A program made the translations under genes and the position numbers. Positions 10,206 through 29,381 of a stretch of DNA of 64,000 nt are shown here, in pieces. Position 1 is the first letter of the stretch. Each line of letters begins with the position of its first letter. The DNA comes from a bacterium (GTDB lineage: Bacteria; SAR324; XYD2-FULL-50-16), in assembly GCA_032250835.1 (NCBI GenBank), contig JAVVEA010000017.1, positions 9,556 to 73,555 on the forward strand, in the 5' to 3' direction. Under the pieces are notes generated by a model. That model saw only the letters and a program-made list of their open reading frames with translations. It had not been told where the DNA came from and made no database searches.

Positions 10206-10290
10206 GGAACCTCTTGTAGAGTCAAAATCCAGGCGAAAATTGCAACACGGCCCAGGCTCTTTGGCAAGGGGCAGGTAGGCTCAGGGCACA

Positions 10291-10335
10291 AAAAAAGGGA
10301 GAGTCCTCATCATTTGAGTCCTCTCCCTTGGAGCC
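10291..10335 (-). terminator. Rho-independent terminator on the minus strand after sORF G
   Basis: On the minus strand the hairpin AAGGGAGAG...CTCTCCCTT is followed by TTTTTTT. Confidence 0.6.
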
Positions 10336-10405
10336 ACCGGTTCGGGCGATTTCGCGCCCGATGATCCCGATGGATGCTTTGGCTTATAACCCGACATAAA
10401 GCACC

Positions 10406-10498
10406 TCAAGCAAAGAGGTTCAGTACGCCGAGGGCCATCAGGGCATAAAGGCCCCATTTGATGGCTTGGATCTTTTGGCTCGATACATAATTAGTCAT
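10406..10498 (-). CDS. sORF G: 30-aa single-TM peptide MTNYVSSQKIQAIKWGLYALMALGVLNLFA (KIQ family)
   Basis: A GGAG RBS lies 8 nt upstream of the ATG. The product has a polar N-terminus and an 18-aa hydrophobic C-terminus. It is a member of the repeated family described in the findings. Confidence 0.6.
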   Translation of the reverse strand: MTNYVSSQKIQAIKWGLYALMALGVLNLFA

Positions 10499-10526
10499 GG
10501 CTGATCTCCTGTTAAACAAGGTTTGG

Positions 10527-10607
10527 TTAAGCTACGTAAGCGACCATCAAGGTCGTGGCCAGAGCGACAAATGCTACGATGGCCTGGGGGATTTTTGCGG
10601 TATCCAT
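10527..10607 (-). CDS. sORF F: 26-aa peptide MDTAKIPQAIVAFVALATTLMVAYVA
   Basis: An AAGGAGA RBS precedes the ATG. The peptide is identical to sORF E, and the DNA differs from E at 3 synonymous sites only. Confidence 0.65.
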   Translation of the reverse strand: MDTAKIPQAIVAFVALATTLMVAYVA

Positions 10608-10643
10608 GTTGGTTCTCCTTAAAGGGTTTAAGTTCGGTGAATT

Positions 10644-10724
10644 TTAAGCTACGTAAGCGACCATCAAGGTCGTGGCCAGGGCGACAAAAGCTACAATGGC
10701 CTGGGGGATTTTTGCGGTATCCAT
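10644..10724 (-). CDS. sORF E: 26-aa peptide MDTAKIPQAIVAFVALATTLMVAYVA
   Basis: An AGGAGA RBS precedes the ATG. It is a paralogue of sORF F. Confidence 0.65.
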   Translation of the reverse strand: MDTAKIPQAIVAFVALATTLMVAYVA

Positions 10725-10792
10725 TTTGGTTCTCCTAGTTAAGTTTAAGTTTAAAGTGGCTTGATTGCCGGTGAGGTTTTTTTGCACCTCAT

Positions 10793-10820
10793 GGGTATAT
10801 CTATTTCACGTGTCGTGCCA
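10793..10820 (-). promoter_or_regulatory. Candidate sigma-54-type promoter (minus-strand TGGCACG-ACAC-GTGAAATAGATATACCC) about 70 nt upstream of sORF E
   Basis: The -24 TGGCACG element is perfect. The -12 position reads GTGA instead of TTGC. The 28-nt block is conserved with 12032..12059. Confidence 0.4.
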
Positions 10821-10882
10821 CGATTAATTAGTGCAATATTATCAACAAGATACAAAAACTCCCTTCCAACCAGAAGATTAAA

Positions 10883-10906
10883 TTCGGAACTAATAATTCC
10901 GACATG
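10883..10906. promoter_or_regulatory. Inverted repeat TCGGAA-N7-TTCCGA (candidate enhancer/UAS for the adjacent EBP)
   Basis: A perfect 6-bp palindrome sits about 80 bp upstream of the 10793..10820 promoter, and the half-site recurs four more times in the region. Confidence 0.4.
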
Positions 10907-10998
10907 AACATCTCTTCAGAATCCCCTGAGCCCAATAGGCACTGATTAACATTTTAAAAACTTTATTTTCAGTAAGTTGCAAAATTTAAAGAACTAGT

Positions 10999-11040
10999 AG
11001 TTCCGTAAATACAAAATCAGAACTTTTAGTTCGGAACGCC
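10999..11040. promoter_or_regulatory. GTTCCG ... GAAC-TTTTA-GTTC-GGAAC palindromic half-sites (second candidate UAS, about 200 bp upstream of the promoter)
   Basis: CGGAAC half-sites in inverted orientation lie in an AT-rich spacer. Confidence 0.35.
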
Positions 11041-11081
11041 CTAAAGCACTTACCATAAGCCCTCGGCACCCCATAAACAAA

Positions 11082-11118
11082 AAAATCCCGTGGAGGCACC
11101 CGAAGGCAACTTCACGGG
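11082..11118 (-). terminator. Rho-independent terminator on the minus strand after sORF D
   Basis: On the minus strand the hairpin CCCGTG...CACGGG is followed by TTTTTTT. Confidence 0.55.
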
Positions 11119-11256
11119 ATCTTTAAGGGGAGTCCATCATCCACATTAAATGCCCGGGGGGACAGACAACGGATTGATGAACTAATAATAAGAGGCCGCA
11201 CCGGGGAACGACCGGCTAGCCTCTTGGGGCCCGCAAAAGCCCCTCCCCAAAAAAGC

Positions 11257-11439
11257 TCAGTATTGCAGGTAACCGATCAACATAGCCCCTAGCAATGTTA
11301 GATAAAAAAACCAAAGAGGCCCATGGCCCCGCTTGCGCCTAAAGATGCGCCGTTGGCCCAATCCTGAAGACCGCTCGAAGGTTTGCGGTGCTTCTTTCAC
11401 TTCCGGTTGGCGCAGCAAGTTGGCCGATTGGATTTTCAT
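11257..11439 (-). CDS. sORF D: 60-aa family member with an Arg-rich insert (MKIQSANLLRQ...RRIFRRKRGHGP...LTLLGAMLIGYLQY)
   Basis: A GGAGAG RBS precedes the ATG. It shares the MKIQ N-terminus and the C-terminal hydrophobic helix with the shorter paralogues. Confidence 0.5.
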   Translation of the reverse strand: MKIQSANLLRQPEVKEAPQTFERSSGLGQRRIFRRKRGHGPLWFFYLTLLGAMLIGYLQY

Positions 11440-11678
11440 AATCTACTCTCCTTTGGGGTGGTTGACCGATGCCCCTCAAAAACATTCGGCTCGACAAGCG
11501 CCCGTAGACGCACAAATGGGGGCTCAAGCCCCCTTGGTTATGTTTCGCCCCCAAGACCTATGCAACACAGGCCAGCAGCCAAGCTCCCGATAGAGAGCCC
11601 AGGACTACCCAATCTATGGGGGTTCTGTTTGTTTTTAATCGATTCACACTAACTCCTTGTGTATGGGTTCGCCCGTCC

Positions 11679-11765
11679 TTAGGCGAAGTAAGCCAAGACG
11701 CCGATGCCGAACAAAGCGTTCAGGGCGACGAAGTATTGCATGATCTTTTCTGCTTGGATTTTCAT
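11679..11765 (-). CDS. sORF C: 28-aa peptide MKIQAEKIMQYFVALNALFGIGVLAYFA
   Basis: A CAGGAGA RBS precedes the ATG. It is identical in protein to sORF B, and the DNA differs at 2 synonymous sites. Confidence 0.65.
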   Translation of the reverse strand: MKIQAEKIMQYFVALNALFGIGVLAYFA

Positions 11766-11796
11766 GTCGGTCTCCTGTTTAGGTCTAAGTTAAGTT

Positions 11797-11883
11797 TTAG
11801 GCGAAGTAAGCCAAAACGCCGATGCCGAACAAAGCGTTCAGAGCGACGAAGTATTGCATGATCTTTTCTGCTTGGATTTTCAT
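11797..11883 (-). CDS. sORF B: 28-aa peptide MKIQAEKIMQYFVALNALFGIGVLAYFA
   Basis: A GGAG RBS lies 7 nt upstream of the ATG. It is a paralogue of sORF C. Confidence 0.65.
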   Translation of the reverse strand: MKIQAEKIMQYFVALNALFGIGVLAYFA

Positions 11884-11908
11884 GTCGGACTCCAGAGGAA
11901 GTTTGTGT

Positions 11909-11995
11909 TTATGAGAACAGGGTCAATACCCCGAGACCTAAGAGTACGTTCAAGACGATCAGGTACTGGGGGAGTTTTTTAAATTCGATCTTCAT
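11909..11995 (-). CDS. sORF A: 28-aa peptide MKIEFKKLPQYLIVLNVLLGLGVLTLFS
   Basis: It has the same architecture as the other family members and is the first gene of the A-B-C cluster, but its RBS (AAGAG) is weak. Confidence 0.5.
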   Translation of the reverse strand: MKIEFKKLPQYLIVLNVLLGLGVLTLFS

Positions 11996-12031
11996 GACTT
12001 AGCTCTTAAAGAGTTTTATTTTTGCGTTCTT

Positions 12032-12059
12032 GGTTCTATCTGTTTCACAAGCTGTGCCA
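12032..12059 (-). promoter_or_regulatory. Candidate sigma-54-type promoter (minus-strand TGGCACA-GCTT-GTGAAACAGATAGAACC) about 40 nt upstream of sORF A
   Basis: It matches the 10793..10820 motif at 20 of 28 positions, with a perfect TGGCAC -24 element and a non-canonical -12. Confidence 0.4.
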
Positions 12060-12127
12060 AGCAGTTTATATAACTGTTTTTATTTGATATAATAAATTTG
12101 CTACCCAGAACACAGGGCTATAATCAG

Positions 12128-12152
12128 AATTTTTGATTCCGAAAAATAATGA
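12128..12152. promoter_or_regulatory. TTCCGAA-AAATAAT half-site (candidate UAS, about 80 bp upstream of the promoter)
   Basis: It has the same TTCCGAA/TAATAA elements as 10883..10906. Confidence 0.3.
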
Positions 12153-12224
12153 AATCCCCGGCGCGCCCCGAAAGAGACGCCTGGATTAATCAAAATAATT
12201 TAATATATTCAGGTAGTTGTAAGT

Positions 12225-12265
12225 TTTACGGAACTGAAAGGTCCGTTTAAGGCTGGTCGGAACTG
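12225..12265. promoter_or_regulatory. ACGGAAC-N6-GTCCGT imperfect palindrome plus a TCGGAAC half-site (candidate UAS, about 190 bp upstream of the promoter)
   Basis: CGGAAC-type half-sites recur here, and the spacing relative to the promoter mirrors the E-F-G locus. Confidence 0.35.
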
Positions 12266-13702
12266 TTAATTCTCATCGTACTCAGATGAGTACTTAAACT
12301 CCTCTTTTTTAATATGATATTTAGTGAGGAGTTTGTGTAGTTGGCGGGTGGTGATCCCGGCGGTGGCGGCTGAATCGTTGATCTTGCCCTTGTGTCGAGT
12401 CAACAACTGGATCAGGTAGGCCTGCTCCACCTGTTCCACCGCCAGCTGGCGTACCTCAGCCAAAGGCGAGTTAGCGTCCACCACCAGCCCGCCGCGCCCT
12501 TTGTCTTGGGCCAAGAAATCGCCGGGGAGGCTGCTAGGCAGCAGGCAGTTGGTTTTCTCTAAGATATAAGCACGCTCTAAGATATTCTCTAATTCCCGGA
12601 TGTTGCCGGGGAAGCTGTACTTTTGTAGGGCCTTGAAGCTATCGGGGTGGATACTAGTGATCCGGCGGCCATATTCGCCTTCTAGATATTTTAAGAAGTT
12701 GTTGGCCAACAGCGGGATGTCTTCGGCCCGTTCGCGTAAGGGGGGAACGGTGATCGGGAAGACGTTGAGGCGGTAATAGAGGTCTTCGCGGAATTCGCCG
12801 GATTTGGAGCGTTCTAAAAGGTCTTCGTTGGTGGCGGCAATCACCCGCACGTCGGTGTCGAGCATACTTTCACCGCCGACGCGCTGCATCACATGGTCTT
12901 GCAAAACCTGCAACAGCTTGGTCTGGGCGGCGGGGCTGATGGTGCCGATCTCGTCTAAGAAGATAGTCCCGCCTTTGGCGATCTCAAAACGACCCAATTT
13001 GCGCTTTACCGCGCCGGTAAAGGAGCCCTTCTCATGCCCGAATAACTCGGATTCGATTAAGTTGTCGGGGATCGCCCCGCAGTGGACGTGCACGAAGGGC
13101 CCGCCGCGCCGCGCCGAGTTGCGGTGGATCAAACGCGCCAAGACCCCCTTACCCACGCCGGTTTCGCCTAAGAGCAACACCGAAGAGTCCGTCGGGGCCA
13201 CCGAATGGGCCTGTTCGAACATGCTGATCATCACCTGCGAGTTGGTCTTGGTGACCCCCTGCTTGTCGTCATCCCAGACCGACATGCGCAGCATCTCTAA
13301 CTCAGACTGCACCTGGGTGTTGGTCTCTAAGTCTTCGAGAGTGTGCAGCAGGGCCTGCGGGTCGATGGGCATAACCAAATAATGGTTGGCCCCGGACTTG
13401 ACCGCTTGGATCAGGTTGCGGATCTGGTCTTGGGTACTGATCACCACCAGCGAGGCGGTCAGGTAGATTTCGCGGAATTTTTCAAAAACTTTCTGGAACG
13501 CCGCTGTAGAGGTGGTGGCGGCGAATCCGTCTTCCACCAAATAGACCAAGTCGATGAACGTGACCTCATAGCGGTGTTTTTTGAACCGATCGAGGCACTC
13601 ATCTAAGCTCAGCACCGAATCGATCCGGTAGCGGTCGCCGATGGTGAAGGTGATGGCGTCGATGGCGTCTTTCGACGGTGTTAAAGTCAGTACAGAACGC
13701 AT
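12266..13702 (-). CDS. Sigma-54-dependent transcriptional activator (bEBP, NtrC/Fis family) with a degenerate receiver-like N-domain
   Basis: It has an AAA+ sigma-54 interaction domain (GETGVGKG Walker A, GSFTGA = GAFTGA motif) and a C-terminal Fis-type HTH. The N-domain lacks the canonical acidic pocket. Confidence 0.85.
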   Translation of the reverse strand: MRSVLTLTPSKDAIDAITFTIGDRYRIDSVLSLDECLDRFKKHRYEVTFIDLVYLVEDGFAATTSTAAFQKVFEKFREIYLTASLVVISTQDQIRNLIQAVKSGANHYLVMPIDPQALLHTLEDLETNTQVQSELEMLRMSVWDDDKQGVTKTNSQVMISMFEQAHSVAPTDSSVLLLGETGVGKGVLARLIHRNSARRGGPFVHVHCGAIPDNLIESELFGHEKGSFTGAVKRKLGRFEIAKGGTIFLDEIGTISPAAQTKLLQVLQDHVMQRVGGESMLDTDVRVIAATNEDLLERSKSGEFREDLYYRLNVFPITVPPLRERAEDIPLLANNFLKYLEGEYGRRITSIHPDSFKALQKYSFPGNIRELENILERAYILEKTNCLLPSSLPGDFLAQDKGRGGLVVDANSPLAEVRQLAVEQVEQAYLIQLLTRHKGKINDSAATAGITTRQLHKLLTKYHIKKEEFKYSSEYDEN

Positions 13703-23676: not shown

Positions 23677-24117
23677 CTACATCCCAAAGAGATTGGTTTG
23701 GGTGCCTTTGCGTTCGGCCCGTTGGATCGCTTTGAGGATCTTCGGCGTCGGGCCTTGGCTCATCACCTCATATTGGGTGTGGCGCAGCCGGAAGAACTCG
23801 GGCCATTCTAAGGGGCCCAGGTAGAGGTCTTCGATAAAAAAGCCCACAATCCCGCGCCCTTCCATCTCGGCGGCGGCCATCTCAAAATTAACCCAAACAT
23901 TGTCTTTGGTGGCTTCGGAAACCACACAGACCGCCACACTGGCTTGGGCCAAGGAGGCTTCGATCGCCGCCTTGATTTCGTCGGTCGGCGGCGTCTCGCC
24001 CGGTAAGGCCTCGGGCCGTTCGACTAAGATCACTTGGCTGTCTGCTTGCGTCAACTTGCGCCCAAAGGCTTGGGCTTGGTCCCGGTCGGCGGGGTCATAG
24101 GAGAGATAGAGGCGCAT
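23677..24117 (-). CDS. Small TIR-like (DUF1863/MTH538-type) domain protein, hypothetical
   Basis: It shows a flavodoxin-like beta-alpha pattern: LYLSYDPADRD ... VAVCVVSEATKDNVWVNFE ... GIVGFFIED. Confidence 0.4.
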   Translation of the reverse strand: MRLYLSYDPADRDQAQAFGRKLTQADSQVILVERPEALPGETPPTDEIKAAIEASLAQASVAVCVVSEATKDNVWVNFEMAAAEMEGRGIVGFFIEDLYLGPLEWPEFFRLRHTQYEVMSQGPTPKILKAIQRAERKGTQTNLFGM

Positions 24118-24564
24118 GTCTTTGGTCCAGTAGGGTTAGCGGGCGGGCCGGTGGATCAATTATTCATATACTTTTATATACTAAACTAAGGTTTCCGTAG
24201 AAAGCAAGGGTTGCCGGAAAGGGGGGCTTCATTTATTTTGCTGCCCGCCGGTTTCACCTTCTCGTAATTTCCGCTATATTCCGCGCTAGATAGACCCGAC
24301 GGAGGCCATAAAACGCATTGGGCATTGGGCGCAAAGGGCTTGCTAGCTGGGGACCGCAGATCAACTGGGGGCCCCTGAATGCGCTACGACCTGCGAGCGG
24401 AGAGCATAGAGAAAGGATATTGCGCCGAAAGATTCGAGGGCCGAGAAAACTGTGAGCGCGAGATGAGCGACGGGCAGGGAGCGGGGAGAACAGGTTGTAC
24501 TCCGCAAATCGACCGAGAATAGAGACGGCTAAGAGAAAGAACTAAGATATAAACAGGAGCCCCG

Positions 24565-24861
24565 ATGCAAAGCCATTATTTTATGCTCACCTACGACTTC
24601 GACCCCGCCCACCGGACCGAAGAAAATTTCCGCTTTATGGACGAAGGCTTAAAAAATGAGGACTGGCTCCCCCTAGGCCCCCGCCATAGCTTCACCCTAG
24701 AAGTAGAAGCCGACAACCCCACCAAAGCCCACCGCATCGCCGTACACTCCGTTGAGCATGCCTATAAAGACCACGGAGCCCAAGGAGTCTTGAGCGTAGC
24801 CCTACAATTTGGCCCCGAACCGTTGGTGGAGTTGGAGTTAAGGGAGGTGGCGGGGGGATAG
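24565..24861 (+). CDS. Hypothetical protein (98 aa)
   Basis: An AGGAG RBS lies 7 nt upstream. It is convergent with Cap3, and I recognise no homology. Confidence 0.4.
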   Translation: MQSHYFMLTYDFDPAHRTEENFRFMDEGLKNEDWLPLGPRHSFTLEVEADNPTKAHRIAVHSVEHAYKDHGAQGVLSVALQFGPEPLVELELREVAGG

Positions 24862-25116
24862 GGGTTCTTTAATGGCATGGGTAAACAACGGGGCGCTGGG
24901 CACTCACTTAGCTACCTAGCGAAGCCTTTAGCCGCCCTGAGCGTAAAAGCGGGCGGGTTCGCATGTTGCAGTCAAGGCTATGCCAATGGATGTCACTGTA
25001 TTTTTGCACCTTCCCTGAATGCCCTCTACCTGAAGCGGCTCTGCAAGAGTTTCTGGTACAGTGGAATGTACCATTTCAACTTCCGGCATTGGGGCGGCAG
25101 CAGGGACTATTCCACG

Positions 25117-25572
25117 TTAAGTGCATGGACTCAAAGTCCCACTCTGAAATGCCCCCACGTACCTTCCGCTTGTGCCCTGAATAACCAAAAGCAGAAACTC
25201 TACAGTTAGCTGTCCATTTTCAAATTGATCCTTGATCATCATTCGGTCTCTACTTGAGGGTGTAGGCTTACTTTCAGCATGGGTGTGCCATTCGCCCAAA
25301 TATATGGTCCTCTGCCCACTATTAAGATACTCATAATCGATGATCACCTGAGCAGGAAAAACTGCACGAACAAATCCATACCGCTTGCGTTTGTCTTTTG
25401 AGTTTGGGGTAGTTATTTTTGAAACCACCACTTTATTCAACTCTGGGTACACCTCTCCCAGCAGTATCCCCCCCGCTTCTTTCGACGAATGGGCGTTTTG
25501 ACGAAAACTCTCCATGACAACAACAACCGAATCTTCAATTTGGATTTTCCATTCCTGAAATCTGGTCTTCAA
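25117..25572 (-). CDS. cap3: CBASS Cap3, a JAB/JAMM (MPN+) isopeptidase
   Basis: It carries the JAMM motif EWHTHAESKPTPSSRD (HxH-x7-S-xxD) and lies last in the operon. Confidence 0.75.
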   Translation of the reverse strand: MKTRFQEWKIQIEDSVVVVMESFRQNAHSSKEAGGILLGEVYPELNKVVVSKITTPNSKDKRKRYGFVRAVFPAQVIIDYEYLNSGQRTIYLGEWHTHAESKPTPSSRDRMMIKDQFENGQLTVEFLLLVIQGTSGRYVGAFQSGTLSPCT

Positions 25573-27289
25573 AATCTATCCTCTCCAATGTACCTTCGCT
25601 ATAATATTGTTGAACCCTTGAAGCTTCAAAAGCCCTGTTCCCGCTAGGCGAACCAGCCCACTTCCAACAAATCAACTGCTCCTTTTGGCCGTGGCAACAA
25701 TCCATAATACGAGAAAACACCTTGCTTAAAAAGGCATTGATGTCTCTACCGCTGAACGGGGCGAAAGTTCCTTGGCACCCTCCTTCATTCAAGCGATAGC
25801 GGCTTTCTTCTTGAATGTACTCCTCAGGTGGAATCGTATTCCCAAAATAGAAGCCTTGTTTATCATGTAATTTTTCAAAAAGGATTAGGTCTGGTTTTGA
25901 AAAGCACAAACAGTGAGCCCCTAAAAGAAAGGGTTCGACAAACAAAATCACAACAGGACATTTGATTCCATGCTGTTCCATCTGTGAAAGTACAAATTTT
26001 GTAATAGCCCGTTCGCCTGTTGCTAGAACACAGGCTGTTGCCCCAGAAAACGCCTCCGGATTCTTGCCTAAAAATTCTCCTATACACCCGGATATTGCTT
26101 CGACCTTAGTATGAGGCATGGTCGAGCGTACAAAGTCAGCCATTGCTGTTGCCTTATTCTGCCCGCACTGAGCAATTCCCAAAATATGGCGAGGTACATT
26201 TTCAGGTTTAAGCCTGTCTTTATCGACCAATGTTACACTCTGAATAGGCATGAACCTTAGCAGCCCAAGCAAATTGGAGCCGATACTCCCAAGACCAATT
26301 ATTGCCAGTTTTTCGATTCGATTAGACCGATGAACGCCTTCTGTCCGTTTCTCAAGCCTTGAGAGACCAATATCTCTGGCCAATACTCTTACAGCGTCTA
26401 TCTTGAGTAAAGGCAGGCCAAATGCATTTCGTTTTCCCATACTTCCATGAAGCCGCTTTTGCGGAGGCGTTACCCTCCAGCCCAACAGGTAGTCAGTACC
26501 TTTGAACCTCTGAGAAAACAGCAAATAAAAAGGCTCTGGAGCCAAATTTAACTTCAGATCAAGCCAATCAATCAAATCAAGATTCCGAACCATAACGGCA
26601 GGTAAAATCTCTTCCGCTGGAAAATGATACGGGGGAAGCTTCTTAGGGGTGAAACGTATTAGTTGGGCTGGATATTCAGCGAGTGGCTGTCCCCAAACCG
26701 CTTCAATATTTTCCACTATTGGGGTCTGAGTTGAGGGCAAAATAAAGCTAAGTATACGATTATCTTTGCGGTATGCCTTCACCGAAATCAAAGTGCCCCT
26801 TTGCATACAGGGCAAGGCAAAATATAAACCTTCGTCTACAATGTCCGTCGAGCTATATAATTGCCGCCAGTAGTCAACAAATTCCCTTGAAAACTCCTCG
26901 TAATTTTCACCCCTTACGCCTGTCTCAACGACTTCTAAAGCTTTATGAACAGTATCTATTATTAGTTCATGTGGCTGCAATATAGAGCCATCTATCAGTT
27001 CATCCTCCCAAGGACAAACAAGACAATTCTCGTCAACATGAGGAATATATCCCACTTGAGCTTTAAGCTCTCGTGACAGATAGACCTTGGGCGGTTTGAA
27101 GGAAAATAATCGTGTGATCTGCAGATAGGCTACGCCGCATAGAATACCTCCGTCTTTGCGAAGAATATTCAGCTCAACAGATATACAACAACCGAGGCTG
27201 TGTTCACCTTCATCTTCATCAGGAGAAGGAATTTTGGCTTTAAACGACTTCGGTAATTGTTTTACAAGGTTGGCTAAGTCTTGCCTCAT
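25535..27289 (-). CDS. cap2: CBASS Cap2, an E2-like/E1-like (ThiF/MoeB) fusion
   Basis: The C-terminal half has a Rossmann motif IIGLGSIGSNLLG and a ThiF-like fold. The N-terminal half is UBC-like. It overlaps the cyclase stop by 4 nt. Confidence 0.75.
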   Translation of the reverse strand: MRQDLANLVKQLPKSFKAKIPSPDEDEGEHSLGCCISVELNILRKDGGILCGVAYLQITRLFSFKPPKVYLSRELKAQVGYIPHVDENCLVCPWEDELIDGSILQPHELIIDTVHKALEVVETGVRGENYEEFSREFVDYWRQLYSSTDIVDEGLYFALPCMQRGTLISVKAYRKDNRILSFILPSTQTPIVENIEAVWGQPLAEYPAQLIRFTPKKLPPYHFPAEEILPAVMVRNLDLIDWLDLKLNLAPEPFYLLFSQRFKGTDYLLGWRVTPPQKRLHGSMGKRNAFGLPLLKIDAVRVLARDIGLSRLEKRTEGVHRSNRIEKLAIIGLGSIGSNLLGLLRFMPIQSVTLVDKDRLKPENVPRHILGIAQCGQNKATAMADFVRSTMPHTKVEAISGCIGEFLGKNPEAFSGATACVLATGERAITKFVLSQMEQHGIKCPVVILFVEPFLLGAHCLCFSKPDLILFEKLHDKQGFYFGNTIPPEEYIQEESRYRLNEGGCQGTFAPFSGRDINAFLSKVFSRIMDCCHGQKEQLICWKWAGSPSGNRAFEASRVQQYYSEGTLERIDFEDQISGMENPN

Positions 27290-28278
27290 TGCTTGGCGCT
27301 AGAGGCGTTACCCGGCAAGCTTGTTGCTTTTGCATGTTTTTTTGCTCTTTCAAACCTCTTTGATTTGAGGTCATCGCACTTAAATCGGGGCCCTAGGTAT
27401 TTCGCCCAAATTTTACAGGCTTCATATTCGTCCTCATCCTCGAGTGCAATTTTTCCATCCTCTAAAAGCAGTTCAAGCTCCCCTAAAAAGAACTCCTTTT
27501 GCTCGTCGGAAAAGTCTTCAAACAGGTCCTCCCGCTTAGGCGTTGGTCGCGTACAAGTAAACTGCCCCCACTTAAGATGCCTATCATCGATCACGTTCTG
27601 TATCGCCTGAAGGGTAGCAACTAGCGATTGGTCATCCCTGGCAGCAGGTCGATAGTGGTTCACCGTCAAAATCGTTAAGCAAAACCCACTAGGTAACTCA
27701 TATTTTTTTGAACGAACTTCCCGCCAGACTTTCAAATATCTTATCAGTCTAATAAGCTGTGAGTTGTTACCTGTTTTTTCCCGAAACCACTCTATAAACG
27801 CACGAGGGTCACTTTCAACCCAACCTAGTTTCTTATGGGCTAAGTCAGGAGAATCCGTTGCTGTAAGTGAAAACTTTTCAGTTAATTTTTCGAGGAAGTA
27901 TATTGGCATGTCGATATGCCTATCATCTTGGTATTTCACTCGGACGCATGTCGGTTTATCCTCTACCGTTCGTTTCCTACGCTGAACGGCACTTACCACA
28001 ATAGAATGAGCATCTTTTACGGACGGCCTGTTTTCCATAGCACAAGAAAAATAGACCCCATCATCAATGTCGTACTCTCCGTTTTCTGGCTCCACTATTG
28101 TGTTCAAAACATACGACCCCTGCCCAGCAAATTTGACTGAGATATCCGACTGGTCTTTCAATTCAGCACGAATATCTTTCCTCAAAGCGTTCCTAGATTC
28201 TCTTAAGCTTTGCTTTTTCGATTCACTCAGCTTGATCTTTTCGTTAAATGATTTAAATTGCTTAGCTAAATCAGCCAT
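27286..28278 (-). CDS. cdnX: CD-NTase (cGAS/DncV-like nucleotidyltransferase)
   Basis: It carries the GS...[DE]h[DE]h motif GQGSYVLNTIVEPENGEYDIDDGVYF. The start is reassigned to MADLAKQ, which has a GAGG RBS. Confidence 0.75.
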   Translation of the reverse strand: MADLAKQFKSFNEKIKLSESKKQSLRESRNALRKDIRAELKDQSDISVKFAGQGSYVLNTIVEPENGEYDIDDGVYFSCAMENRPSVKDAHSIVVSAVQRRKRTVEDKPTCVRVKYQDDRHIDMPIYFLEKLTEKFSLTATDSPDLAHKKLGWVESDPRAFIEWFREKTGNNSQLIRLIRYLKVWREVRSKKYELPSGFCLTILTVNHYRPAARDDQSLVATLQAIQNVIDDRHLKWGQFTCTRPTPKREDLFEDFSDEQKEFFLGELELLLEDGKIALEDEDEYEACKIWAKYLGPRFKCDDLKSKRFERAKKHAKATSLPGNASSAKQ

Positions 28279-28291
28279 CTCAGCCTCGTAT

Positions 28292-28927
28292 TTAGAATTT
28301 TCGTTTAAGCTTACCTGAAACCAACTTGACCCCCATTCCCCCGCACGAGGGAGGAATGCGTACATTTACATATTCACCAGTTAAGACCCTTGACGATTCA
28401 TCTTGGACAACCTCTAAAACATTAAACCCTCTGTGCATATCTAATGACCCCTTCACTCCCCCGCCCGAATTTACATACTGAAAGGACACCTCGAAATTGC
28501 CATTTTTCTTTCTATAGACTGTTGCCTCTTCACTGGTTGAGGCAGTTGGCTCCGTCCCATCATCCTTCTCGAACCAGCAACACACAGATAAACTTGAGGC
28601 CGATTGTTCGATTTCCAGAGTACATCTCTTCGGAATCCCTTGTTCGGAAGTAGGCTCAATACGCCCTTCATACCGACCCGATATATTGGGAACTTCAACC
28701 AAAACATTAAACACCGGTATTTTCCATAACCAGCTTTCGTACAACCAAAACAATAGCGTAATTACGGTAATGTCCGTTATAAACATGAAGTCATGGGTGT
28801 CAAATCCAAACTTTTCTTGAATGACCTTAGCTAGTGCTGGCCGCATCAACTGCAGCAAGTAGGCGAGACCTAGGATTGCAAGAATGAGCGGTGTAAATTT
28901 GTAGTTTCCTAGCTTGGGAGGGGTCAT
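28292..28927 (-). CDS. CBASS effector, 2-TM plus C-terminal beta-rich domain (Cap15-like)
   Basis: It has two N-terminal TM helices and an about 130-aa C-terminal domain. It is the first gene of the operon, as in capV-dncV-cap2-cap3 arrangements. Confidence 0.5.
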   Translation of the reverse strand: MTPPKLGNYKFTPLILAILGLAYLLQLMRPALAKVIQEKFGFDTHDFMFITDITVITLLFWLYESWLWKIPVFNVLVEVPNISGRYEGRIEPTSEQGIPKRCTLEIEQSASSLSVCCWFEKDDGTEPTASTSEEATVYRKKNGNFEVSFQYVNSGGGVKGSLDMHRGFNVLEVVQDESSRVLTGEYVNVRIPPSCGGMGVKLVSGKLKRKF

Positions 28928-29381
28928 ATTTCAATCTTAGATTTCAGTAGAGAGTTATATCATCAACTTGCTAACTAGCGTGTCCCACTAAAAATCCTCA
29001 TCGTCAAGCATATCGAATGATAAAAAGTTAGCCCCTCGCTATAGGTTTTTAAAATCTGTCTTCGATCTATTCAAACTGGTACAGTTCCTGGTACAATAAG
29101 CACATCTCAGAACTGAGATAAATTTATCATATCAGCATATTAGCACATCTGGCGTTCGACTCCTGGCACCTCCACCAAATCACTCGACCGTGGGCCGTAA
29201 CGATTAGGCCCCTTTCGACGGGAGAATATAGGGCCCAGATTTCCTGTATTGACACTCAAGGCCCGTTACAGCCACTTCTTTCTTCTCCCCCACTCACCCC
29301 GCTTTACATTTCTGCCCAAGCCAGCTAGAAGGGTGATTGGAAAGTTAGTTTCCCCCCGATGACGCTGGTCGCGGCATTTGG

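Follow-up and report, generated by a model that had tools for sequence, protein, structure and literature searches.

A candidate type II CBASS operon with a Cap15-type membrane effector in a bacterial metagenome-assembled genome

Four co-directional genes on the minus strand of contig JAVVEA010000017.1, from a bacterial metagenome-assembled genome (MAG), very probably make up a complete, apparently intact and conventional type II system of cyclic-oligonucleotide-based antiphage signalling (CBASS), an abortive-infection system with a Cap15-type membrane effector. The genes lie in a stretch of 64,000 nucleotides that was analysed as a whole and is called the window here; coordinates are counted from its first nucleotide. 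Their products are a Cap15-family effector, a cGAS/DncV-like nucleotidyltransferase (CD-NTase, also called the cyclase), the fusion protein Cap2, and the metallopeptidase Cap3. A preliminary description, made from the letters of the DNA, had placed four such genes at 25117-28927 and proposed a complete type II CBASS operon; the open reading frames (ORFs) are present at those coordinates, and each of the four family assignments has passed independent profile, alignment or structure tests. Matches to PADLOC models are far beyond chance, with E-values of 1e-26 for the effector, 1.9e-102 for the cyclase, 1.7e-90 for the E1-E2 protein and 4.3e-43 for the JAB protein. Compared with its family, each of the four proteins is full length, and the effector gene adjoins the cyclase gene in the same operon and on the same strand, as expected of type II CBASS. 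Neither the system type nor any of the four families nor the effector class is new, and the cyclase is already named in the public record. In bioinformatic censuses, two-transmembrane (2TM) effectors are already listed for type II operons.

The effector is a member of the Cap15/S-2TM-beta family, because the evidence from Pfam and PADLOC, homologues, profiles, hydropathy, and AlphaFold2 (AF2) modelling with Foldseek comparison agrees. Residues 77-199 match Pfam Cap15_CD_rec (PF18153) with 34.2 bits against a gathering cutoff of 31.2 (E 3.6e-8), and 13 of the PADLOC '2TM' CBASS effector models match the protein, the best with the E-value given above. Among 1.84 billion representatives, searched exhaustively with HMMER, 312 relatives reach E<=0.001. 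Their length is about 200 amino acids in nearly every case, and all have 43% identity or less, save an identical MAG protein (P0001, 100%); all 72 homologues that were aligned match PF18153. Two hydrophobic segments at approximately residues 11-33 and 45-67 are seen in the Kyte-Doolittle profile, and the AF2 model (predicted local distance difference test, pLDDT, 93.7; predicted template modelling score, pTM, 0.87) has helices at 11-40 and 52-65 followed by eight beta strands, in agreement with the two N-terminal transmembrane helices and beta-rich C-terminal domain first described for this 211-residue protein. The effector family profile matches the Cap15 crystal structure from Yersinia aleksiciae (YaCap15, 7N34) with an E-value of 1.3e-17, and the three best Protein Data Bank (PDB) matches of the AF2 model are YaCap15 chains (7N34/7N35) with TM-scores of 0.80-0.82 on the target and a root-mean-square deviation of about 3 A; lipocalin-like barrels rank far below them. 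The Cap15-like identity suggested earlier is upheld by these matches, and the 2TM protein does not belong to an unrelated family. The beta-barrel is only about 19% identical to that of YaCap15, and the conserved Cap15-family segment YFTNRxPQTxG reads YVNVRIPPSCGG in the window's effector. By sequence and model, the C-terminal eight-strand barrel is a predicted cyclic-dinucleotide receptor domain homologous to that of YaCap15.

The GS...DIDD motif from which the second gene had been called a nucleotidyltransferase is present, and in an alignment of 25 family sequences G54-S55, D70-I-D72-D73 and D123 are invariant; the catalytic acidic triad of a CD-NTase (D70, D72, D123) is kept. Pfam matches are DncV-like_NTFase (73.9 bits), SMODS, and DncV_C, and the NCBIfam model NF041078, 'CBASS cGAMP synthase', is matched with 230.6 bits, where the cutoff is 150. 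Among solved structures 7LJO comes closest, with an E-value of 5.1e-41 over residues 1-301 of 330, while DncV gives 3.1e-14. 7LJO is the Bacteroides fragilis CdnB (BfCdnB) of clade CdnB04, which is reported to make mainly 3'3'-cyclic GMP-AMP (3'3'-cGAMP) and to have an aspartate, Asp238 in 'lid 3', that selects the guanine donor (PMC10442399). In the HMMER alignment Asp238 corresponds to E250 of the window's cyclase, which is followed by D251 and is at least 90% conserved in the family. Because the cyclase passes the NCBIfam cGAMP-synthase model and BfCdnB is the closest structure, 3'3'-cGAMP is the likely product; the acidic lid-3 position supports this indirectly.

Cap2 is a 584-residue fusion of E2-like and ThiF-like domains with a GxGxxG motif, as had been read from its translation. 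Pfam ThiF is matched with 54.5 bits and Prok-E2_B with 24.3 bits, just under the cutoff of 25.4, and the adenylation loop is GLGSIGS at 332-338. The best match of the AF2 model (pLDDT 76) is E. cloacae Cap2 (7TO3_A) over the full length (E 2.4e-16), and its E1 domain compares with 7TSX at a TM-score of 0.80. Columns invariant in the family include P83-H84 and C92 in the E2 domain and G332/G334/G337, D356, R367 and K379 in the adenylation domain, plus C505 of the E1, whose loop is of low confidence in the model as expected of a mobile E1 catalytic loop. Since a sequence alignment with E. cloacae Cap2 covered only the adenylation domain and was set aside, identification of the catalytic cysteines relies on their invariance in the family and on the structural match. 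In Cap3 the JAMM motif, described earlier as HxH-x7-S-xxD, is complete: E32, H96-T-H98, S106 and D109 do not vary between it and the four Cap3 proteins of type II loci to which it was aligned. Pfam Prok-JAB is matched with 34.8 bits and the PDB entry 9ILD, 'Peptidase', with an E-value of 4.6e-13.

The order of the genes, with the effector first, had been likened to capV-dncV-cap2-cap3 loci, and the same order is found in the patatin-containing relatives L005, L091 and L092. The claim that all four genes are translationally coupled stands in part: cyclase and cap2 overlap in the sequence ATGA, and cap2 and cap3 overlap by 38 nt with GGAGAGG 7 nt ahead of the TTG start of cap3, but effector and cyclase are closely spaced rather than overlapping, with 13 nt between the effector stop and the cyclase start. 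A Shine-Dalgarno sequence precedes each of the four starts. The longest cyclase ORF (27286-28365, minus strand) would encode 359 amino acids; it was dropped for the ATG at 28278, which is most likely the start because a GAGG Shine-Dalgarno sequence lies upstream of it, the profiles and the BfCdnB alignment all begin at its Met, and the public record of an identical protein has 330 amino acids and the name 'CBASS cGAMP synthase'. In the public record the effector is a hypothetical protein (RRB13_14260) and Cap2 is a 'ThiF family adenylyltransferase'. The AT-rich region upstream of the effector presumably holds the operon promoter. Coordinates are collected in Table 1.

Table 1. Coordinates of the CBASS genes and associated features in the window
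Feature	Position	Strand	Evidence or location
Cap15-family (S-2TM-beta) effector, 211 aa	28292..28927	-	Pfam PF18153, PADLOC, hydropathy, AF2, Foldseek
CD-NTase (cGAS/DncV-like cyclase), 330 aa, CdnB-like 'CBASS cGAMP synthase' type	27286..28278	-	PADLOC, NF041078, 7LJO
Cap2, 584 aa, E2-linker-E1 fusion	25535..27289	-	PADLOC, Pfam, invariant columns, AF2 vs 7TO3_A
Cap3, 151 aa, JAMM/JAB metallopeptidase, TTG start	25117..25572	-	PADLOC, Pfam Prok-JAB, 9ILD
AT-rich upstream region of the operon, ~38-42% GC	28928..29150	-	Composition profile
Low-GC block, four CBASS genes and upstream region only	25100..29150	.	Composition profiles, per-gene GC at third codon positions (GC3)
Orphan 24-nt tRNA-like 3' end fragment, GTTCGACTCCTGGCACCTCCACCA	29154..29177	+	Right edge of low-GC block
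Heptamer pair TGGTACA-N6-TGTACCA, inverted repeat	25054..25073	.	44-63 nt downstream of cap3 stop
Heptamer pair TGGTACA-N5-TGGTACA, direct repeat	29077..29095	.	150-168 nt upstream of effector start

Judged by its relatives, the operon looks like a chimera of modules, a type II module of cGAMP type with Cap15 where CapV usually sits. The cyclase has its closest relatives (41-42% identity), and Cap2 its own (28-29%), in patatin-cyclase-cap2-cap3 operons or partial contigs of them, and all of the neighbourhoods of cyclase and Cap2 relatives that were examined (L002-L005 and L091-L093) fit the patatin layout. The closest relatives of the effector are found in two-gene Cap15-cyclase arrangements (L001, L088, and L089/L090), with one beside a DAC-domain protein (L086). 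Cyclases beside the Cap15 genes of these relatives are of the same broad clade as that of the window, matching its family profile with E-values of 1e-90 to 1e-113 at 31-37% identity, and it can therefore be argued that effector and signal are compatible. The replacement of CapV by Cap15 is an expected outcome of CBASS modularity. A tblastn search of plasmids for Cap15 with Cap2/Cap3 gave one weak archaeal match, and a degenerate DNA pattern had two chance matches in viral contigs, neither with Cap15.

Some of the loci that contain effector relatives have further features. The best of the partial effector matches, P0127 (43% identity across residues 54-204), is encoded beside the DAC-domain synthase of L086. 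Positions 6001-12618 of L086 hold this Cap15-family gene, the DAC gene (502 amino acids), a complete patatin-cyclase-cap2-cap3 type II CBASS, and a further SMODS gene, a cluster of nucleotide-signalling defence modules with a likeness to DAC-based Panoptes-like systems. The Cap15-cyclase pairs of L089 (5118-8897) and L090 (649-4485) are preceded by a gene for a LexA-like S24 peptidase with a helix-turn-helix domain; after them come a SEC-C-motif protein and, on the opposite strand, a divergent second Cap15-family gene. Such an arrangement hints at regulation linked to DNA damage and at duplicated effectors.

The cyclase's C-terminus bears on how Cap2 and Cap3 could act on it. Cap2 adenylates and conjugates a C-terminal Gly or Ala of the cyclase (bioRxiv 10.1101/2022.03.31.486616; PMC10097602; bioRxiv 10.1101/2023.09.29.560134), while Cap3 cleaves linear fusions precisely behind the final residue of the cyclase (bioRxiv 10.1101/2022.03.31.486616; PMC10097602). 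The disordered tail of the window's cyclase ends ...LPGNASSAKQ, that is, in the conserved Ser-Ala and then Lys-Gln. When the C-termini of the 119 closest cyclase homologues (P0004-P0122) were classified, 57 had a small terminal residue, typically in ...[KR]S[AS], and 22 had 1-4 more residues beyond Ser-Ala (such as KK, QK, LND or I), among them the cyclase of the type II patatin operon L092 with the tail ...SRSAQ. A different tail, (S/K)PW plus 1-6 residues, was present in 33, and the remaining 7 fit none of these classes. The cyclases of type I Cap15 loci do not have the Ser-Ala motif, whereas the window's cyclase has the motif of type II. By its sequence, then, the window's cyclase has a type II conjugation tail extended by two residues. 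By analogy with the characterised proteins, the simplest interpretation is a pro-form that would be trimmed, probably by Cap3, before use by Cap2. A broader reading, somewhat more doubtful than credible, is that the cyclases with 1-4 residues past Ser-Ala (approximately one-fifth of the relatives) are all pro-forms and that Cap3 is their obligatory maturation protease as well as an antagonist, much as deubiquitinases act on ubiquitin precursors. If this is true, Cap3 would be a required positive component of a subclass of type II CBASS with extended cyclase tails, and its obligatory role in maturation could help explain published cases where full defence needs Cap3 activity. The practical question raised is whether Cap3 must trim Lys-Gln before Cap2 can prime the cyclase.

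The mechanism proposed for the operon is modelled on characterised homologues as regards trimming, the target of conjugation, the identity of the nucleotide, the polarity of the effector, and antiphage activity itself. The cyclase would be made with the disordered tail ...SSA-KQ, and Lys-Gln would be removed, most plausibly by Cap3, to expose the conserved Ala. The E1 domain of Cap2 would then adenylate the cyclase C-terminus, thioesters would form on Cys505 (E1) and Cys92 (E2), and ligation of the cyclase to a target lysine would leave it primed; Cap3 would reverse the conjugation. On phage infection, the primed cyclase would make a cyclic dinucleotide, most likely 3'3'-cGAMP, which would bind the effector, a two-pass protein of the inner membrane, at its cytoplasmic beta-barrel. 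The effector would oligomerise and disrupt the membrane, and the cell would die before the phage cycle is completed. This ligand-on polarity, with oligomerisation and inner-membrane disruption, is borrowed from characterised homologues and is favoured in the window only by the context of CD-NTase, Cap2 and Cap3.

Among known systems, capV-dncV-cap2-cap3 (from Vibrio cholerae and E. coli TW11681, and represented here by L005, L091 and L092) has the order effector, cyclase, Cap2, Cap3 in common with the window's operon, as well as a cGAMP-synthase-type cyclase with a disordered tail and a conserved small-residue motif, an E2-linker-E1 Cap2 with both catalytic cysteines, and a JAMM Cap3. The effector there is the patatin phospholipase CapV, whereas that of the window is a two-transmembrane beta-barrel of Cap15 type; DncV is of clade A, whereas the window's cyclase is CdnB-like (5e-41 to BfCdnB compared with 3e-14 to DncV), and its tail runs two residues (Lys-Gln) past the conserved Ser-Ala. 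The Cap15 type I systems, CdnE-Cap15 from Yersinia aleksiciae (7N34/7N35) and CdnE03-Cap15 from Staphylococcus schleiferi, have two genes and clade E cyclases without Cap2 or Cap3; the Yersinia effector is of the same Pfam family and fold (TM-score about 0.8), and the Staphylococcus system shows that Cap15 can be driven by cGAMP (PMC10686824). BfCdnB (CdnB04, 7LJO) has the same catalytic residues and an acidic lid-3 residue (PMC10442399), although lid 3 is Asp238-Asp in BfCdnB and Glu-Asp in the window's cyclase, and sequence identity is modest. Panoptes OptS-OptE, with an mCpol and an S-2TM-beta effector, and the DAC-based Panoptes-like systems have the effector family in common with the window, and a DAC protein is the partner of one near relative of its effector. 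Panoptes effectors are switched off by their ligand (PMC12657218), and the synthase in the window is a CD-NTase with Cap2 and Cap3, not an mCpol or DAC.

In the literature searched, the experimentally studied Cap15 systems are all type I with a clade E cyclase (PMC10442399, PMC10686824, PMC10419184), and no characterised operon uniting Cap15, Cap2 and Cap3 was found. The locus is a clean natural example of effector swapping, with Cap15 behind a Cap2/Cap3-regulated cyclase module of cGAMP type that drives a patatin phospholipase in all of the cyclase and Cap2 relatives examined. It is a divergent addition to a well-studied immune family, each protein being at most 43% identical to others in a collection of 5.8 billion clusters, and it comes from a poorly sampled host lineage whose flanking genes are closest to those of Bacteriovoracaceae MAGs. 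Current understanding of CBASS is unchanged by the locus, which is a fairly ordinary family member.

Several points weigh against a working, conventional type II system. It is known here from MAG sequence alone. A promoter scan of the AT-rich upstream region gave no convincing sigma-70 match and nothing above background, and in a terminator search the hairpin 3' of cap3 had no U-tract and a folding z-score of -1.6. Cap2 is very divergent, with the best of its 26 relatives in the cluster collection only 29% identical, and Cap3 scores 79.3 bits against an NCBIfam Cap3 equivalog cutoff of 200 and is therefore considered a divergent member. Bulky or charged terminal residues abolish conjugation and defence (PMC10097602; bioRxiv 10.1101/2023.09.29.560134); the window's cyclase ends in Gln, not Gly or Ala, so priming by Cap2 would depend on the proposed trimming step. 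The characterised Cap15 effectors come from type I systems with CdnE, and YaCap15 is reported to sense uracil-containing dinucleotides (PMC10419184), so the matching of ligand and effector in the window's operon is assumed. Polarity is also reversed in some proteins of the S-2TM-beta family, for instance in the Panoptes effector OptE (PMC12657218).

The same architecture could be served by another signal, a pyrimidine-containing or non-canonically linked dinucleotide or a trinucleotide. Such a signal is rather unlikely, and a system using it would differ from the cGAMP-dependent one in detail only. The uracil-containing ligands reported for YaCap15 (PMC10419184) speak for it, as do the identity of only 42% between the cyclase and its nearest relative and the Glu in lid 3 where BfCdnB has Asp. 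Yet the NCBIfam cGAMP-synthase equivalog cutoff is exceeded by 80 bits, the closest structure is that of an enzyme making mainly 3'3'-cGAMP (PMC10442399), the relatives pair with CapV, an effector that 3'3'-cGAMP activates (PMC12480259), and a cGAMP-activated Cap15 is known in Staphylococcus schleiferi (PMC10686824).

It is improbable that the cassette is a stranded or inactive passenger, acquired but unexpressed or non-working because, for example, the cyclase C-terminus is left unprocessed or effector and product are mismatched. In favour of a passenger are that the 4-kb low-GC cassette stands alone, without mobility genes or a recognisable promoter or terminator, that the cyclase ends in Gln, and that the effector has different nearest neighbours from the cyclase and Cap2 modules. 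However, none of the four ORFs is truncated, all catalytic or invariant residues are kept, and the genes are still tightly packed as an operon with their ribosome-binding sites. The tail with Ser-Ala plus 1-4 residues recurs in 22 of the 119 homologues, including that of the type II operon L092, and is therefore a maintained feature rather than decay, and Cap15 and patatin both occur with cyclases of the window's clade.

An inverse polarity of the Panoptes kind, in which a constitutive nucleotide holds the S-2TM-beta effector inactive until a phage sponge or nuclease depletes it and releases the effector, so that the system is a guard against anti-CBASS factors, is very improbable: although OptE, closely related to Cap15, responds to its ligand in the opposite way and the polarities cannot yet be told apart by sequence (PMC12657218), and although P0127 of L086 stands beside a DAC synthase rather than a CD-NTase, like DAC-based Panoptes-like systems (bioRxiv 10.64898/2026.08.10.743927), the window has as partner a CD-NTase that has a conjugation-type tail and comes with the Cap2/Cap3 apparatus for priming, as is characteristic of infection-induced signalling, the window genes scanned with Pfam include no mCpol or DAC domain, and three other near relatives of the effector are in standard Cap15-CD-NTase pairs with cyclases of the window's clade.

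The operon occupies a block that differs in composition from the DNA around it. The block has approximately 44% GC and a GC3 of 0.39-0.45, compared with 55-63% GC and a GC3 of 0.60-0.76 in the surroundings. On its left is a housekeeping cluster (RimK-like, GCS2, and N-formylglutamate amidohydrolase, FGase), on its right are tRNA-Leu(UAA) and a methionine-salvage operon, and elsewhere the window carries ordinary chromosomal DNA of a diderm bacterium. This contrast marks the approximately 4-kb cassette as horizontally acquired, with composition the sole basis because the empty-site comparison gave no empty site: none was found, and the exact window proteins were absent from the contig index. The closest genomes with the flanking aminotransferase are those of Bacteriovorax and Bacteriovoracaceae MAGs, at 55-58% identity and without synteny, including that of the tRNA. 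An exact metagenome scan with the tRNA-Leu sequence had no match, no att-like direct repeat was found in the window at the block boundaries, and no integrase, transposase, or further defence system lies in the window, except for an orphan TIR gene of native composition.

Two sequence features lie at the edges of the block. The tRNA-like fragment at its right edge consists of a T-loop, 3' T-stem, 3' acceptor strand, and ACCA; it is present in a single copy in the window where none is expected by chance, sits at the GC boundary, and neither ARAGORN nor Rfam calls it a gene. The JGI metagenome collection holds a single exact match to it, at the 3' end of a tRNA-like element of 82 nt (L094, 522-603, minus strand), and the viral collection has no exact match. 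The 82-nt element begins with GGGGGTGAGTTGGCTTCGA, which would give a G3:U70 pair, and has the look of a tmRNA or tRNA-Ala, although it is unrecognised by ARAGORN. The fragment may be a relic of integration targeted to ssrA or a tRNA gene, carried in with the cassette. The heptamer TGGTACA occurs nine times in the 64-kb window compared with approximately three expected, and four of the nine are in the two pairs that bracket the cassette. A wider local alignment of the two heptamer flanks is marginal, with 14 of 300 shuffles scoring as well, and the motif is absent from the 94 related loci. The pairs could be recombination sites, operators, or the product of chance.

The orphan TIR gene (23677-24117, minus strand) encodes a stand-alone protein of 146 amino acids that matches Pfam TIR_2 (1.6e-9) and is ThsB-like in PADLOC (1.8e-8); its GC3 of 0.72 is native, it lies 1 kb from the cassette, and there is no ThsA-like or other partner nearby. 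It was considered as a part of the CBASS and rejected on account of its native composition, its position 1 kb away beyond a convergent ORF, and the fact that CBASS needs no such component. The convergent ORF (24565-24861, plus strand, 98 amino acids) faces cap3 and has a good ribosome-binding site and native composition, with no match in Pfam, NCBIfam, or PADLOC. It is preceded by a purine-rich intergenic region of 450 nt (24118-24564) that has no Rfam match.

Farther from the cassette, a 2-kb stretch of 47-49% GC at 10206-12265 has no long ORF and adjoins a sigma-54 activator gene (12266-13702, minus strand). It has no Rfam match and contains tandem units of approximately 100 nt, with 91% identity between 10527-10634 and 10644-10751 and 97% between 11679-11775 and 11797-11893. 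On the minus strand, each unit has a Shine-Dalgarno sequence and then would encode a hydrophobic peptide of 26-28 amino acids, for example MKIQAEKIMQYFVALNALFGIGVLAYFA.

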